64,000 nucleotides of DNA from a virus. Taxonomy: Duplodnaviria > Caudoviricetes. The stretch lies in IMG/VR virus record IMGVR_UViG_3300025674_000014, one strand, 5' to 3'. Each line of letters opens with the position of its first letter. Position 1 is the stretch's first letter. Below are positions 2,046 to 57,795 of the stretch, piece by piece. The position numbers and the translations under genes are program-made. A model generated the notes under the pieces. It did not search any database and was not told where the DNA came from. It saw only the letters and a program-made list of their open reading frames with translations.

Positions 2046-2073
2046 GACTTATTAACCTTACATGTTATTTCAA
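2046..2073 (-). promoter_or_regulatory. early/middle-type promoter (imperfect -10) for groES
   Basis: TTGAAA-N16-TAAGTC, ATG 5 nt later. Confidence 0.5.
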
Positions 2074-2466
2074 TGCTGATTTAATTTTAGTTACATCTAT
2101 TTTACCTGAATCAAGATATTGTTCTACTTCACGTCTAGATATTTCAAAACGTTTAGCAAGAAACTTTACTATCTCATCAAAGTTATTAATATCTTTTCTT
2201 TTCTCTTTTTTGATATAATGAATACGTCCAGGTGAACCTTTTGGTAATATTTTAATCAGATAATCATACCACTCTCTCTTCGTATCAAATACGTTATAAT
2301 GCTTGTTAGTAGTCTCATTAATAATCTGAGCATACTCAGGAGAGTACATACTCAACCACCTACAAACAATATAAGGAAGAAACTGATCTTCATCCTCAAC
2401 GTTATCCAAAAGGTTACCCTTCTTAGTAACAATTATATCATTTAGAATTTCAAAGATATTGAGCAT
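2065..2466 (-). CDS. 62: clamp loader small subunit (T4 gp62-like)
   Basis: F.PYIV.RWLSM...YDYL...LPK....YIKK...LAK.FEIS.REV.QYL; size 133 aa. Confidence 0.7.
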   Translation of the reverse strand: MLNIFEILNDIIVTKKGNLLDNVEDEDQFLPYIVCRWLSMYSPEYAQIINETTNKHYNVFDTKREWYDYLIKILPKGSPGRIHYIKKEKRKDINNFDEIVKFLAKRFEISRREVEQYLDSGKIDVTKIKSALK

Positions 2467-2471
2467 TACAA

Positions 2472-3062
2472 TTACTTAATGATAACTTTAGACGTAGCAA
2501 CGAACATATCGTCATTCAACTCATAGAATGCTTTGTTTACTTCACTACAGAAATTATTCACTTGCTCATCAGTAAAATTAGTACTAAATGCAAATGCAGG
2601 AGCTTTCTTACCAGCTACTACATTGATACCAGTATGACCAAGAGCAACACCATCTTTAACATACGTAATACTAACACTTACTTTACCTTCTTGCTGCGTA
2701 ACACCACCTTGAGTAAATTCTTTCTGCACCATAATATCATCTCCATCCATATAGATAGGACAATTCAGGTATTCAGGCTTAGCTAGAATATTAGCAATAC
2801 AAGTATTAAGTAATCTCTGATATGCTACTGCACCAAAAGGATTATCTAGGATAGGAATTTCCCATAGAAAGTTAATTGAGTCATCACTCCAGATGAATTC
2901 TTGCTTATCTACATCTTCCTGATCGATCATTCCATCAGCAAGCACTTCCATAGGAGCTCTAAATGATACTAGATTACCAATTGGTAATACTTTATCTTTG
3001 AAAAACTTATATGCAAATCTGCTATGAAGAAGATTACCGTCATATTTTTCTACATTAAACAT
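2472..3062 (-). CDS. DUF366 family protein (BPL/LplA-like fold)
   Basis: YDG..L...FAY...G..VSFR.PM....MIDQEDV...I.SDD.INF..E....AV..QRLL....GDDI...KVSVSI....LGH.GINV. Confidence 0.7.
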   Translation of the reverse strand: MFNVEKYDGNLLHSRFAYKFFKDKVLPIGNLVSFRAPMEVLADGMIDQEDVDKQEFIWSDDSINFLWEIPILDNPFGAVAYQRLLNTCIANILAKPEYLNCPIYMDGDDIMVQKEFTQGGVTQQEGKVSVSITYVKDGVALGHTGINVVAGKKAPAFAFSTNFTDEQVNNFCSEVNKAFYELNDDMFVATSKVIIK

Positions 3063-3068
3063 ATAGTC

Positions 3069-3096
3069 ATTATATCACCTCTGCAAAGAAGACCAA
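3069..3096 (-). promoter_or_regulatory. early/middle-type promoter for DUF366
   Basis: TTGGTC-N16-TATAAT, ATG 6 nt later. Confidence 0.75.
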
Positions 3097-3596
3097 CGTT
3101 TATGAGCGGTATTTATAATTTTTTTTGCTTCAGATTTACCCAACCATCCATTAATTTTTACATCTTTATCTTCAAGGTCTTTATAATGAGAAAAGAAATT
3201 AAATGTAGTTGAAACCCAATGTGGGTCTAGATCTTTTAGAGAACGATAATCCTTTACGTGAGAAACAGGTACCGTAATAATCTTAAAATCTTTATCACCA
3301 TTATCATCCATATCTAAAACAGCTATTGGATAAACTTCTACTAAAGTACCAGTTTTGATAGGTACGTTATTATAAACACAAACATCTAGAGGGTCATTAT
3401 CTAAAGCTAAAGTTTGAGGTACAAATCCATACGAACAGGTGTATCTCATACTACTGTAAAGACATCTGCTAAGTTTAAAGATACCTAATTGTTCATCGTA
3501 CTCATACTTGGCATTGGTATCTTTTTCAACTTCAATTATAGCATTTATCCTTAAAGGAGCATCTATACCTATTGGAATATCATTTACTAAATTCAT
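3075..3596 (-). CDS. ppa: family I inorganic pyrophosphatase
   Basis: AKYEYD, YGFVPQTL..DNDPLDV, D.G.KD.KII, FF..YKDLE. Confidence 0.92.
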   Translation of the reverse strand: MNLVNDIPIGIDAPLRINAIIEVEKDTNAKYEYDEQLGIFKLSRCLYSSMRYTCSYGFVPQTLALDNDPLDVCVYNNVPIKTGTLVEVYPIAVLDMDDNGDKDFKIITVPVSHVKDYRSLKDLDPHWVSTTFNFFSHYKDLEDKDVKINGWLGKSEAKKIINTAHKRWSSLQR

Positions 3597-21566: not shown

Positions 21567-21594
21567 AATTTAAGTTACTAAATTAAACTTTCAA
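21567..21594 (-). promoter_or_regulatory. early/middle-type promoter for 21561 glycan block
   Basis: TTGAAA-N16-TAAATT, ATG 5 nt later. Confidence 0.7.
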
Positions 21595-22332
21595 TGCTTT
21601 ATCCCAAAGTAGCAAATGTAACCTAGGACTAAAGTTAAAGTGATACTCTTTAGCAAGCTCAGCAACATCTGCTGCAACTCTAATATGTTCTTCACGACTA
21701 CCAGCACAAGGCATCAACCAAACACGACCAGTTGGTATATCAAACTTATCAACATACTCAGTCATAATTTCTTCCATATCACGGTGACTTTGTACTACAA
21801 ACTTAAACCCTGAATTATGCATTGTATGCCAATCGAGCACCTCTTCAATATAACGCTTGCCTTTAGGATCGCCATTTGACTTTAGTTTAGGTGAAGTAGT
21901 AAATGTAGCTTGGAACTCATCTATCCATCGATCTGAAGGATATATAGTTGCATTAGTTTCAAAATCGATACGAGGTACAAAACCCCACTCTTGTTTCAAG
22001 TAATCGATGAACTTAAGAAGTTTAGCTTGCTGGATAAGAGGTTCGCCACCAGTTAGTTTAAGAATAGCACCATTAAATAAATGATCTTTATAACCATTAT
22101 CTTCTAGCATACACCTAATATGGTAAAATGACATCTTATTCTTAATACTCCATGAAATATAACTATCACAACCATATGGTGCATCTTCAGACTTAAACCC
22201 AATACACGTTAGGTTACACATCGACATTCTCATAAACACCGATGGCATGCCTACATACTCACCTTCACCTTCTATAGTATAGAAAATTTTATCATCACTA
22301 AGAAATATAGTCTCATCCTTAAGTTCAATCAT
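21583..22332 (-). CDS. queE: 7-carboxy-7-deazaguanine synthase (radical SAM)
   Basis: FYTIEGEG...G.PSVF.R...CNL.C, LTGGEPL, ETN, SPKL, KFVV, LMP, FSPRLH..LW. Confidence 0.85.
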   Translation of the reverse strand: MIELKDETIFLSDDKIFYTIEGEGEYVGMPSVFMRMSMCNLTCIGFKSEDAPYGCDSYISWSIKNKMSFYHIRCMLEDNGYKDHLFNGAILKLTGGEPLIQQAKLLKFIDYLKQEWGFVPRIDFETNATIYPSDRWIDEFQATFTTSPKLKSNGDPKGKRYIEEVLDWHTMHNSGFKFVVQSHRDMEEIMTEYVDKFDIPTGRVWLMPCAGSREEHIRVAADVAELAKEYHFNFSPRLHLLLWDKALKV

Positions 22333-23123: not shown

Positions 23124-23287
23124 TTCTTTTCCATCTCAAGTAACTCTTTAAGAGCCTCTTCAGGCGATATTGTTTTTATATCAGCCTGAAGAGGTATTTT
23201 TTCGTCTGGAGAAGGCTTTGATATCTCTGCCATTTTAGCAAAAACATCTTGCTGTAATTTATTAATTGTTGGATCTCTTTCTATCAT
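23102..23287 (-). CDS. hypothetical protein
   Basis: 61 aa; ATGA overlap with queD. Confidence 0.5.
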   Translation of the reverse strand: MIERDPTINKLQQDVFAKMAEISKPSPDEKIPLQADIKTISPEEALKELLEMEKNQTDSNT

Positions 23288-23967
23288 CTCATACTATCAC
23301 CACTCTTGGTAGACCAAGAAGTACCACCAAACATATCACCTAAACCTTGTGATACTTTATTTCCAACAGCTGCTGGAATAGAACCATCTGGGTTAATTTT
23401 CAACCCTTCTTTAGTATACTTAGTTTCATCTTTGATTGCTGGTGTATTTTCAGGTGTAATAGGTTGGAATTCATCTTTTTTAATTTCTTCTTTACTTTCT
23501 TCTTCCTTAAAGGTCATTTTCTGTACATGCTTATTAGTATATGTAGCACTATTGCTCTCATGTTCCCAAACTTCAACCTTTTCTACATCACACCTACCTT
23601 CAGTCATTGCTGATACATAGATACTTGCAATATCAAAACACTTCTTAGCAAACATTTCAATACCAACTCCATCATCAATACGAAGATCAATAACACCTTT
23701 ACGATTTAAATCATTAAAGTCATCAAGGAAAGGATCGTGCTTAGAAATAATAGTAGTATGATCGAAGTGTTGTTGTAGTTTTTCTTTTAGCCCTTTAAGG
23801 CCACCAAAATCTACAACCCAGTTATTTTCATCTAGTTCATTACAACTAAACCAAAATTTAGCAGTTAACCTATAACCGTGAAGAAATCTACAATGTGACT
23901 TAGCTTGAGGTTGACGAAACGCACAGCTACCAAGTTCAATTACTTTAGTACTTTCAAAATTAGCCAT
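23284..23967 (-). CDS. queD: 6-carboxy-5,6,7,8-tetrahydropterin synthase with C-terminal extension
   Basis: SHCRFLHGY, VVDFG, DH, E.FA, V.VWEH..N.A. Confidence 0.85.
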   Translation of the reverse strand: MANFESTKVIELGSCAFRQPQAKSHCRFLHGYRLTAKFWFSCNELDENNWVVDFGGLKGLKEKLQQHFDHTTIISKHDPFLDDFNDLNRKGVIDLRIDDGVGIEMFAKKCFDIASIYVSAMTEGRCDVEKVEVWEHESNSATYTNKHVQKMTFKEEESKEEIKKDEFQPITPENTPAIKDETKYTKEGLKINPDGSIPAAVGNKVSQGLGDMFGGTSWSTKSGDSMR

Positions 23968-26451: not shown

Positions 26452-27108
26452 ATGACTGACGAACAGAGAGTAAAAGAATTTGTACTACCGACGGCTAATA
26501 GTTCGGTAGCATTGACAGATGAACAGCAAAGCATTGTTATTGAAAATGCTGCTAAAGCTTATGAAGCATTCCTAGATGCACTTGGTTTTGATTGGCGTAA
26601 AGACCCTAATAGTGATAATACACCGCATCGTGTAGCTAAGTCTTTCGTTAAAGATCTTATTGCAGGTTGTTATAATGCACCTCCAAAAGTTACTTCGTTT
26701 CCATCTGATGGTTACGATGGTATAGTTGCTCAGACTAATATTCCCGTTAAAAGTCTCTGCAGTCATCATCATCTTGCGTTCACCGGTCGAGCGCATGTTG
26801 CATACATACCTTCACTAGAAGGGCGTGTTATTGGTCTGAGTAAACTAAACCGTATTGTCGAATATTATGCTCGTCGTCCTCAAATTCAGGAAGGTATGAC
26901 AATGCAAATTCATAAAGCTATTGATAAGGTTTGTGAATTGAATAAAGGTGTTGCTGTAGTTATTAAAGCTACCCATACTTGTGCATGTCTTAGGGGTGTT
27001 AAGCATGATGGTTGTTCGATGGTTACTTCTAAACTATCAAAAGACTTTATGGATGATGTTAAGACTCGTAAAGAGTTTTATGACTTTATCCGTATGGCTG
27101 AGTCTTGA
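26452..27108 (+). CDS. folE: GTP cyclohydrolase I
   Basis: TP.RVAK, SLCSHHHL.F.G, GLSKL.R.V....RRPQIQE, H.C...RG, R.EF. Confidence 0.95.
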   Translation: MTDEQRVKEFVLPTANSSVALTDEQQSIVIENAAKAYEAFLDALGFDWRKDPNSDNTPHRVAKSFVKDLIAGCYNAPPKVTSFPSDGYDGIVAQTNIPVKSLCSHHHLAFTGRAHVAYIPSLEGRVIGLSKLNRIVEYYARRPQIQEGMTMQIHKAIDKVCELNKGVAVVIKATHTCACLRGVKHDGCSMVTSKLSKDFMDDVKTRKEFYDFIRMAES

Positions 27109-55788: not shown

Positions 55789-56586
55789 ATGAGTGAAAGA
55801 AAACTACGTAGAGCTGTAATGCCATTTAGTGGTGGTATGGATAGTGCTGTTATGCTTAACATGGCTCAAACAGCACATGATGAATTATATTGTATTACTT
55901 TTGATTACGGTCAACGTCATAAGCGTGAGATCGAATGTGCTAAAACTCAAATTGAACATAATGAAGTAAGGTCATTTAGTCACTCGTTTGAGTTTCATCG
56001 TATCTATCATAAGATTATCGATGTGTCATTTATTAAGGAACTTGCAACTACTAGTTCACTTACTAATACTGATATTGATAACCCTGATGTTAAAGATATG
56101 GTTGGTGAAGCTCAACCAGCTAGTTATGTACCTTTTAGGAACCAGTTGTTTCTAAGTATTGCATGTGCTTATGCTGAGTCTATTGGTGCTGATACCGTAT
56201 ATCATGGTGCAACCCAAGTTGATAGTCTTGCTGGTTACTGGGATGGTAGTCCTGAATTCCAAGATAGTTTTAATAAACTGATTAGTCTTAATAGACAAAA
56301 TCAAATTGTAGTTAAATGTCCATTGATTAACCTTAGCAAGAAAGACATTATTCTATCTGGTATTAGTAACAGGGTAGATTTTGGTGAAACATATACGTGT
56401 TATAGTGGTGATGAAATTGCTGATGCAACTACACCAAGTAGTGCACTACGTATTAAGGGTTTTTGTGATGCTGGTTATATTGACCCTCAACCATATAAGC
56501 AAGATCTTACATCATTATGGGAAGAGCATGACTGTAAGCCATGCCCTACTGGGTTCTTTTTACAAAAAGGAGGTACTAGAGGTTAA
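55789..56586 (+). CDS. queC: 7-cyano-7-deazaguanine synthase QueC, degenerate Zn site
   Basis: FSGGMDS, F.YGQRH..E, SSLT, YVPFRN..FLS.A, Y.D....F, P....SK..I, TY.CY. Confidence 0.88.
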   Translation: MSERKLRRAVMPFSGGMDSAVMLNMAQTAHDELYCITFDYGQRHKREIECAKTQIEHNEVRSFSHSFEFHRIYHKIIDVSFIKELATTSSLTNTDIDNPDVKDMVGEAQPASYVPFRNQLFLSIACAYAESIGADTVYHGATQVDSLAGYWDGSPEFQDSFNKLISLNRQNQIVVKCPLINLSKKDIILSGISNRVDFGETYTCYSGDEIADATTPSSALRIKGFCDAGYIDPQPYKQDLTSLWEEHDCKPCPTGFFLQKGGTRG

Positions 56587-57183: not shown

Positions 57184-57795
57184 ATGTGTGCAATATTTGG
57201 TACAAAAAATAAAGAACAATTTGATTCATTATATGAACTAAATCATAAACGTGGTGGGTTTGCATTCAGTGCAGTTTTTAGGAACAAAGAAGGTAAGTTT
57301 ATGACTACTAAAGGTCGTAAATATATCAAACCACTAAGTAATGCAAAGTATATTCTAGCCCATGACCAAGCCCCTACTTCTTCAGTTCGGTTGTATGATT
57401 ACCGTACTTCTCACCCGTTTGTTTGTGGTGAGTGGGTGGTGGCACATAATGGTGTATTAACTAATCATAAGGAACTGTTAAAAGAACACAATTGTGATGT
57501 TGATAGTAGTTATATACCCGCTCTTCTCGATAAGGAGACTAAAGGAGAAGTAACTTCTATTGAAAATGTGTGTAGTTTATTAGAAGGTACATTTGCTTGT
57601 TGGATAGTTAATAGAACAAGTGGTAACATTTACTTGGTTAAACAAGGTAGTACGCTATTTTATGATGGTGCTACATTTTCATCGGTAAAATTTACTGGTA
57701 GTTATGCATTGAGAGACGGGGTTGTTTATCTTGTTGAAGATACAATTGCTCCAATTGGTAAGTTTAAAAGTAACAGTCCTTTTGCATTGATATAG
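57184..57795 (+). CDS. class II (Ntn) glutamine amidotransferase
   Basis: N-terminal MC.IFG, RG, AH..APT, HPF, VAHNG, DS. Confidence 0.8.
   Translation: MCAIFGTKNKEQFDSLYELNHKRGGFAFSAVFRNKEGKFMTTKGRKYIKPLSNAKYILAHDQAPTSSVRLYDYRTSHPFVCGEWVVAHNGVLTNHKELLKEHNCDVDSSYIPALLDKETKGEVTSIENVCSLLEGTFACWIVNRTSGNIYLVKQGSTLFYDGATFSSVKFTGSYALRDGVVYLVEDTIAPIGKFKSNSPFALI

Follow-up and report, generated by a model that had tools for sequence, protein, structure and literature searches.

What does a gene of the uncharacterised DUF366 family do in a phage that also carries genes for the synthesis of 7-deazaguanines? The route from GTP to preQ0 is regarded as one of four enzymes, FolE, QueD, QueE and QueC (PMC10516641). 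The window, that is, the whole stretch of 64,000 nucleotides that was analysed, encodes a counterpart of each of them together with a DUF366 gene (Table 1). It covers part of the genome of a large T4-like phage that has not been cultured, and its first 20 kb gave no match by megablast among 50,697 phage records.

Table 1. Features of the window that bear on the DUF366 gene, with positions counted from its first nucleotide.
Feature	Position	Strand	Basis and remarks
DUF366/COG2029 gene	2472..3062	-	ATG to TAA, 196 aa; Pfam PF04017
sigma70-type promoter of DUF366, placed for a leaderless transcript	3069..3096	-	read from sequence
clamp-loader-like gene	2065..2466	-	phrog_225, E 3.8e-11; 5 nt past the DUF366 stop; first gene of the replication block
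inorganic pyrophosphatase	3075..3596	-	Pfam PF00719, E 1e-50; directly upstream of DUF366, 12-nt gap
queE (7-carboxy-7-deazaguanine synthase)	21583..22332	-	best NCBIfam matches all QueE models, E 3e-13, under equivalog cut-offs; leaderless-type promoter
queD-like	23284..23967	-	Pfam PF01242, E 1.8e-18; bacterial QueD HMM, E 1.4e-10; PTPS domain and ~80 extra C-terminal residues
folE (GTP cyclohydrolase I)	26452..27108	+	Pfam PF01227, E 1.8e-48
queC (7-cyano-7-deazaguanine synthase)	55789..56586	+	Pfam PF06508, E 1.6e-51; TIGR00364, E 2.6e-43
class-II glutamine amidotransferase near queC	57184..57795	+	Pfam GATase_6/GATase_7, E 4e-7

The DUF366 protein and its predicted fold

The product of the gene matches the Pfam model PF04017 (DUF366) with an E-value of 1.1e-19 (71.1 bits, for a cut-off of 29.9) over positions 11-183 of the 184 in the profile, and no PHROG or NCBIfam family was assigned to it in profile searches. 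Nineteen positions, mostly polar, are conserved among 157 non-redundant members of the family, and all 19 are present in the phage protein; they include, in its numbering, Y7, D8, G9, D47, D50, E68, Q82, R83, G107, D108, D109, K127, S129, S131, H143, N147, P155 and K192. The corresponding family motifs (YDG, DxED, E68, QR, GDD, KxSxS, HxxxN, a proline and a C-terminal lysine) are each kept in 77-93% of the 157 members. The phage protein is an intact, ordinary member of the uncharacterised DUF366/COG2029 family, and the nature of its conserved residues suggests a ligand site. In the ESM Atlas it falls in a largely viral cluster (2,368 members, 75% of them viral).

The AlphaFold2 model of the protein, computed from 57 diverse homologues, has a pLDDT of 96.5 and describes a single domain of approximately 190 residues. 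Its top structural match is PDB entry 2DDZ, the PH0223 protein of Pyrococcus horikoshii (Foldseek E 2.6e-12; VIA Z 22.5, rmsd 2.3 Å, 179 residues aligned, 26% identity). PH0223 is the only DUF366 member with a solved structure, and it shares family, fold and conserved motifs with the phage protein; the cellular DUF366 profile recognizes 2DDZ with an E-value of 2.8e-54. On the other hand, the Thermococcales relatives of PH0223 are not found beside que genes, and the subfamily of the phage protein is a largely viral one. The structure was deposited as that of a protein of unknown function, and the searchable literature yielded an entry for PH0223 in a two-hybrid table only, with no published function. 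Similarly, no paper naming DUF366, PF04017 or COG2029 was found in the searchable literature, and DUF366 goes unmentioned in both of the main papers about deazaguanines in phages.

The next-best structures are biotin protein ligases (BPLs), with Z-scores of 12-12.7 over some 157 residues of their catalytic domain, followed by LipB (Z 11.6) and LplA (Z about 11). The sequence-only reading of this DNA had named the gene DUF366-like and ascribed to it a BPL/LplA-like fold, and both statements are borne out, the first by the nearly full-length profile match and the second by the model. The BPLs concerned, BirA of E. coli and the enzymes of P. horikoshii (PhBPL) and A. aeolicus, share their catalytic-domain fold with the phage protein, and the register of the two families agrees in three weak alignments, each of them below threshold when taken alone (hmmsearch against the PDB, E 0.08 for A. 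aeolicus BPL; NCBIfam, E 0.0016; hhalign, E 0.022 with a probability of 2%). In these alignments K127 falls on the invariant BPL lysine, GDD on PND and HxGxN on GxGxN; the lysine in question is K111 in PhBPL and K183 in BirA. DUF366 shares the fold of the BPL/LplA/LipB family but does not belong to it, because PF03099 (BPL_LplA_LipB) gave no match to the phage protein at E ≤ 0.01 and because the biotin/ATP loop GRGRxGR, which is invariant before the PND strand in our BPL alignment (A5), has no counterpart among the conserved DUF366 positions. The BPLs also have a C-terminal domain that DUF366 lacks, and the conserved N-terminal motifs of DUF366 (YDG, DxED, F..E and QRL) differ from theirs. LplA and LipB have the same superfamily fold, but their sequence similarity to DUF366 is undetectable; the Cys-Lys dyad of LipB has no matching conserved cysteine in DUF366, for which no acceptor protein is evident.

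Promoter and gene order in the T4-like phages

The promoter preceding DUF366 comprises a -35 hexamer TTGGTC (3096-3091), a 16-nt spacer and an extended -10 element, TGATATAAT (TATAAT at 3074-3069), followed after 6 nt by the ATG (3062-3060), which leaves no space for a Shine-Dalgarno sequence. The TG of the extended -10 falls within the stop codon of the pyrophosphatase gene. Because the -35 hexamer is weak, with three of six consensus positions, the site was not called by a generic promoter scan. A TAnn[AT]T box is nonetheless found 4-9 nt 5' of the DUF366 ATG in 69 of 73 related contigs, usually accompanied by a TTGA-type -35, and its retention in spite of diverged flanking upstream sequence supports a real promoter. 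We take as real a promoter with a leaderless or near-leaderless start, as read from its layout and conservation and as the earlier reading had claimed.

The same layout occurs at queE (TTGAAG-16-TATAAT-6-ATG), folE (TTGAAC-16-TATTAT-6-ATG) and thyX, with near variants at the starts of queD and queC. It had been proposed that DUF366 shares a promoter class with folE, queD, queE and queC; the shared layout stands, but it is uninformative about a common function, since some 17 other genes of the window also have it at their start. It is therefore a general promoter class of the phage, and the idea of a que-specific leaderless regulon was rejected. That the class is an early one may be proposed by analogy with the sigma70 promoters of T4.

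Proteins 61-100% identical to the phage DUF366 were found on 192 IMG/VR contigs, of which 80 were kept for a comparison of neighbourhoods. The downstream side is nearly constant: in 78 of the 80 contigs, DUF366 is followed by the clamp-loader-like gene, the counterparts of the genes at 1630-2040, 1260-1640 and 916-1263, and a helicase gene. DUF366 heads this block in all 80, with three or four small genes between that of the clamp-loader-like protein and that of the helicase. The upstream side is variable, with glycosyltransferase cassettes present in some contigs and missing from others. In the window, all neighbours of DUF366 lie on one strand, and a run of glycosyltransferase genes precedes that of the pyrophosphatase. 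The latter adjoins DUF366 only in the 22 closest contigs of the 80, and it was rejected as a specific DUF366 partner on this ground. A functional link through the removal of PPi may exist, but it is a weak possibility, and the pyrophosphatase might just as well act with the products of the neighbouring sugar-nucleotide and glycosyltransferase genes.

The que genes of the window are dispersed. DUF366 is 18-53 kb away from queE, queD, folE and queC, an absence of clustering that counts against its being a partner of QueC or QueE in this phage. The queE gene, which has no Pfam match, is homologous to the gene located 3' of DUF366 in bacterial operons, and the QueE encoded beside DUF366, which scores far under the QueE cut-offs of NCBIfam, may represent a subtype that co-evolves with it; queD was recognized, in addition to its Pfam match, with a bacterial QueD HMM built in this analysis. 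The pairing of queC with an amidotransferase gene is also present in Vibrio phage Va3, in which the ORF 3' of queC was considered as a hidden DUF366 and rejected, as it codes for a class-II amidotransferase. The window also encodes a dGTP/dATP diphosphohydrolase domain, a kinase and ThyX. In the long records of the clade, namely the window and five records of 108-193 kb, DUF366 and QueC occur together in six of six, a count that comes from a single clade in which most records are fragments. A queD/folE/phoH/queE block lies 5-10 kb upstream of DUF366 in six of the 80 contigs.

It might be asked whether DUF366 has a role unrelated to que in the T4-like lineage, for instance as a ligase-like modifier of a protein or of another small molecule, the bacterial link described below not having been carried over. 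The conserved synteny with the clamp-loader and helicase genes, never with an adjoining que gene, agrees with such a role, as do the promoter class common to about 17 other genes and the unlinked copies of the Thermococcales and of some Bdellovibrionota. However, none of the residues conserved in the que-linked cellular proteins has been lost from the phage protein, QueC is present in all six long clade records, the queD/folE/queE block is only 5-10 kb upstream in some relatives, and in other phage groups DUF366 is found inside a que module. A role unrelated to que therefore appears improbable to us.

Neighbourhoods in cells and in other phages

The sequence-only reading had suggested, subject to verification, that cellular DUF366 genes often sit next to queC, queD or queE, and it had named gene-neighbourhood analysis as a check. 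The first cellular scan took one genome per species and used a cellular DUF366 profile (alignment A3, A1 and A2 being too divergent). Among the first 80 loci, which were biased to Bdellovibrionota and represent essentially one lineage, queC is directly upstream of DUF366 on the same strand in 73-74, in Bdellovibrionota and others; in a few Bdellovibrionota loci no queC adjoins it. Phylum-wide samples were added to correct for this bias. In the phylum of a Firmicutes MAG (G006), DUF366 is present in 31 of 301 genomes sampled; the arrangement DUF366-queE-folE was found at 20 of 20 loci, extended to queD-queC-DUF366-queE-folE at 17. In Actinomycetota (24 of 251 genomes sampled), queE is directly downstream of DUF366 at all 20 loci, with queC upstream at 13 and queD upstream at seven. 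In Spirochaetota (13 of 201 genomes sampled), queC is directly upstream at 12 of 12 loci, and the two genes typically overlap, with a median of -4 nt between the stop of queC and the start of DUF366.

In these three phyla together, DUF366 lies within a preQ0 operon (queD-queC-DUF366-queE-folE or parts of it) at 52 of 52 loci. At most loci it is queC that adjoins DUF366 and at the rest queE or queD, with the order of the other que genes varying by phylum. The canonical preQ0 genes are all four present, and DUF366 comes in addition to them, as a fifth gene whose usual place is between queC and queE. Given a few thousand genes per genome, adjacency in four phyla with differing gene orders is not due to chance. 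The suggested proximity to que genes is thus strongly confirmed in four bacterial phyla as well as in unrelated phage contigs (see below). A Pfam tally of 106 further DUF366 neighbours in 34 genomes is headed by PTPS/QueD (25) and includes SurE (17); in Actinomycetota it also contains an HGD-D/BcrAD pair. As PTPS/QueD is encoded in the same operons, DUF366 was rejected as a replacement for QueD.

Other cellular copies are found elsewhere. On Thermococcales-like metagenome contigs, whose product is 72% identical to 2DDZ over the fragment, DUF366 follows a gene for an HAD phosphatase and also neighbours that of a lysyl-tRNA synthetase, and no que gene was found within 6 kb of it. Like the few Bdellovibrionota copies without que neighbours, these loci count against a partnership of DUF366 with the Que proteins. 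Among 14 control genomes, DUF366 was found in two, both of methanogens; E. coli and B. subtilis are among the 12 without it. Both of these bacteria make preQ0. In the INPHARED set of cultured phages, QueC is encoded in 243 records, all of which lack DUF366. In general, therefore, the pathway can operate without DUF366. The sole INPHARED match to DUF366 is in 'Microcystis phage MaAM05', which was rejected as a cultured DUF366 phage: the gene is surrounded by glyS, secF, fabI and fliM, and the record looks bacterial.

A DUF366 of the cellular type is present on fourteen IMG/VR contigs of unrelated phages (L214-L227), thirteen of them with a complete copy. Of these thirteen, eight have queC directly upstream of DUF366 and twelve have queE within 4 kb, and FolE or FolE2 and QueF are encoded alongside.

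These phage contigs also bear on a proposal of the earlier reading, according to which DUF366 activates or attaches the 7-deazaguanine base at the nucleotide level in a phage without dpdA, and thereby replaces the DpdA transglycosylase route. Detection of dpdA with the Pfam TGT model (PF01702) was discarded, as the model gave no match in any of five cultured QueC-bearing phages, including phiSM and CP220, both reported to have DpdA, the former with a transglycosylase annotated next to queC; the blanks obtained with this model in 10 DUF366 phage records were not used, and dpdA was sought with protein queries instead. Neither the 64-kb window, which is a minor part of the phage genome, nor the closest contigs, which are fragmentary, yielded a gene of the DpdA1 type or a DpdA-like gene with the TGT fold. 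This agrees with DUF366 as a substitute for DpdA, as do the dGTP/dATP diphosphohydrolase domain, the kinase and ThyX encoded in the window and the pyrophosphatase gene adjacent to DUF366.

However, DUF366 coexists with such genes in other phages. A protein of Cellulophaga phage phiSM has been named DpdA1 (PMC10516641), and clear homologues of it are encoded in L226 and, with an E-value of 1e-31, in L222-L225, at a distance of 2-3 kb from DUF366. In L215, L217, L218 and L221, DUF366 is directly preceded by a gene of a family (A6) with weak matches to DUF6610, the Pfam family of DpdA4 (PMC10516641); the top 50 Foldseek matches of its predicted structure (pLDDT 82) are all tRNA-guanine transglycosylases (E 4e-9). 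Genes of this TGT-fold, DpdA-like family are also found 15-17 kb from DUF366 in four relatives of the T4-like clade (G001, G002, G003 and G774), whose DUF366 proteins are 62-70% identical to that of the window. As DUF366 occurs both with and without a DpdA-like gene in one clade, and as the two are found together in other phages, DUF366 is not a DpdA replacement. Furthermore, its fold is that of carboxylate-adenylating ligases and not of phosphoribosyl- or nucleotidyl-transferases, and the bacterial copies are located in ordinary preQ0 operons of the tRNA type. DUF366 is not the enzyme that inserts the base into DNA, and activation or attachment of the base at the nucleotide level in place of DpdA is very improbable.

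A putative role at the QueC step

In our judgement, DUF366 probably takes part, with the phage FolE, QueD, QueE and QueC, in the synthesis of 7-deazaguanine (preQ0), most closely tied to QueC, as a putative partner that binds or adenylates CDG. The gene for QueC adjoins that of DUF366, and often overlaps it, in four bacterial phyla and in phages, and QueC is the likely functional partner of the phage protein. CPH4 and CDG, the intermediates at this point of the pathway, are carboxylic acids. LplA and the BPLs activate a carboxylic acid as an acyl-AMP and then form an amide, and the first half-reaction of QueC, in which a carboxylate, ATP and NH3 yield an amide (CDG to ADG), is formally chemistry of the BPL/LplA fold. 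The role is proposed because of the conjunction of a ligase fold, a putative superfamily lysine with its neighbouring motifs, and carboxylic-acid substrates.

DUF366 would bind the carboxylate of CDG and possibly adenylate it. It might assist or channel the hand-over from QueE to QueC or the ATP-dependent conversion of CDG to ADG and then to preQ0, with release of PPi. The adjacent pyrophosphatase fits a PPi-releasing reaction, a weak indication. As DUF366 heads the replication block and has a leaderless-type promoter of its own, the base precursor would be made during DNA replication.

QueC itself is a PP-loop ATPase whose fold is unrelated to that of DUF366, and it works in E. coli and B. 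subtilis without DUF366. It performs both ATP-dependent steps alone in vitro. This sufficiency counts against a partner role, as do the QueC-bearing cultured phages without DUF366 and the absence of a fusion with QueC. Searches for longer DUF366 proteins, which constitute weak evidence on this point, yielded no QueC-DUF366 fusion and only three singleton odd fusions.

It is also conceivable that the association with QueC does not involve catalysis by DUF366, which would then be a scaffold, a chaperone or a regulatory subunit that stabilises QueC or QueE or holds poorly soluble intermediates, its ligase chemistry having been lost. The missing GRGRxGR motif of the BPLs and the small, single domain of about 190 residues would agree with this, and the frequent overlap of the queC stop with the DUF366 start suggests equimolar, subunit-like production; moreover, QueC catalyses both ATP steps by itself. 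However, 19 mostly charged or polar residues, among which are the putative superfamily lysine, a histidine and three acidic motifs, have been kept from archaea to phages, and such conservation is more typical of an active or ligand site than of a scaffold. A non-catalytic DUF366 is thus unlikely in our view.

A more specific version of the partnership with QueC would make DUF366 a genuine fifth enzyme of 7-deazaguanine synthesis, which adenylates the carboxylate of CDG (or of CPH4) and thereby takes over, accelerates or channels the first of the ATP-dependent steps, at present ascribed to QueC alone. We put this forward tentatively, as a possibility with the odds against it. If true, the pathway would have a fifth enzyme, whose users would be some archaea, thousands of uncultured phages and, in several phyla, at most a tenth of the bacteria.

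The association of DUF366 with preQ0 operons is genuine and, within the searchable literature, seems not to have been described. The preQ0 route has been regarded as a closed pathway of four enzymes, and in four bacterial phyla and many phages the operon is now found to contain a fifth gene, for a protein with a carboxylate-activating fold. For the dpdA-poor T4-like lineage the puzzle is narrowed, with DUF366 ruled out as the missing insertion enzyme. DUF366 thus represents a concrete and cheap target for laboratories working on queuosine, archaeosine and the hypermodification of phage DNA.

Divergent DpdA-like proteins beside DUF366

When whole records were searched with the Pfam TGT model (PF01702), none of five QueC-bearing cultured phages was matched, including phiSM (DpdA1) and CP220 (DpdA3), and the lack of a TGT hit must therefore not be taken as the lack of dpdA. 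A family of phage proteins of 240-280 residues, which match DUF6610, the family of DpdA4, only weakly, is predicted to adopt the TGT fold, as the top 50 Foldseek matches are all tRNA-guanine transglycosylases. These proteins are probably divergent, DpdA3/4-like DpdAs. DUF366 lies directly downstream of the corresponding gene in one phage group, and the family is also encoded by relatives of the T4-like clade of the window.

Features discussed in this part, with their coordinates
Feature	Locus	Position
DpdA-like	L215	6090-6824
DpdA-like	L217	6730-7974
DpdA-like	L218	7237-7983
DpdA-like	L221	7252-7974
DpdA-like	L219	9112-9903
DpdA-like	L247	1581-2399
DpdA-like	L248	1530-2348
DpdA-like	L249	1406-2218
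Low-scoring queE	Window	21583-22332 (-)
Low-scoring queE after DUF366	L161	5900-6646
Low-scoring queE after DUF366	L173	7586-8302
Amidotransferase	L231	1729-2337
Amidotransferase	Window	57184-57795
surE (example)	L161	4325-5092
Overlapping pair	L236	5514-6026, 6001-6567
Starts with TTGAnn-15/16 nt-TAnnnT	Window	613, 12760, 16158, 22332, 26452, 28381, 38210, 38889, 41326, 42802, 49279, 53073, 57184, 57821, 61494, 63622

Neighbors of DUF366 and of the que genes

The QueE proteins of the window and of bacterial loci where queE follows DUF366 reach only 50-75 bits on the NCBIfam QueE models, the cut-offs of which are 200-300 bits; judged by these scores, a distinct QueE subtype may accompany DUF366. 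In Vibrio phage Va3 (L231), queC is directly followed by the gene of a small amidotransferase of class II (Ntn), and such an enzyme is also encoded near queC in the window. This amidotransferase is a putative ammonia donor, possibly for QueC or for a later amidation.

Phosphatases of differing kinds recurrently adjoin DUF366, namely HAD, SurE, Metallophos (phage contig L219) and PPase (window). The SurE nucleotidase gene comes after folE in the Firmicutes-type operons (L161-L180), and SurE accounts for 17 Pfam matches among the neighbors in 34 genomes. In the Thermococcales-like contigs (L234-L238), a gene for a HAD-family phosphatase overlaps DUF366 at its 3' end, the gene opposite DUF366 is that of lysyl-tRNA synthetase, and no que gene lies within 6 kb. 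Among the Actinomycetota (L181-L200), the que operon is repeatedly flanked by DUF3786 and by genes for an HGD-D dehydratase-like protein and a BcrAD-type ATPase.

Two unusual database entries

The sole DUF366 match in INPHARED is in MW495066.1 ('Microcystis phage MaAM05'), and the region around it (L213, 108417-124938) contains glyS, secF, fabI, engB, fliM and mtgA. This record, or its L213 section, has the look of a bacterial chromosome rather than of a phage. Separately, in the metagenomic protein P0008 (5,923 residues), 34 separate stretches match the 129-180 segment of the phage protein (E 2.5e-44). P0008 is thus either an assembly artifact or a very large protein made of repeats of a DUF366-like β hairpin.

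A promoter class close to start codons

The arrangement TTGAnn-15/16 nt-TAnnnT is placed only 5-9 nt ahead of the start codon at about 17 gene starts of the window, and the layout at DUF366 is kept in 69 of 73 related contigs. Judged from its sequence, this arrangement is a widespread sigma70-type promoter class in the window, from which leaderless mRNAs would be predicted.
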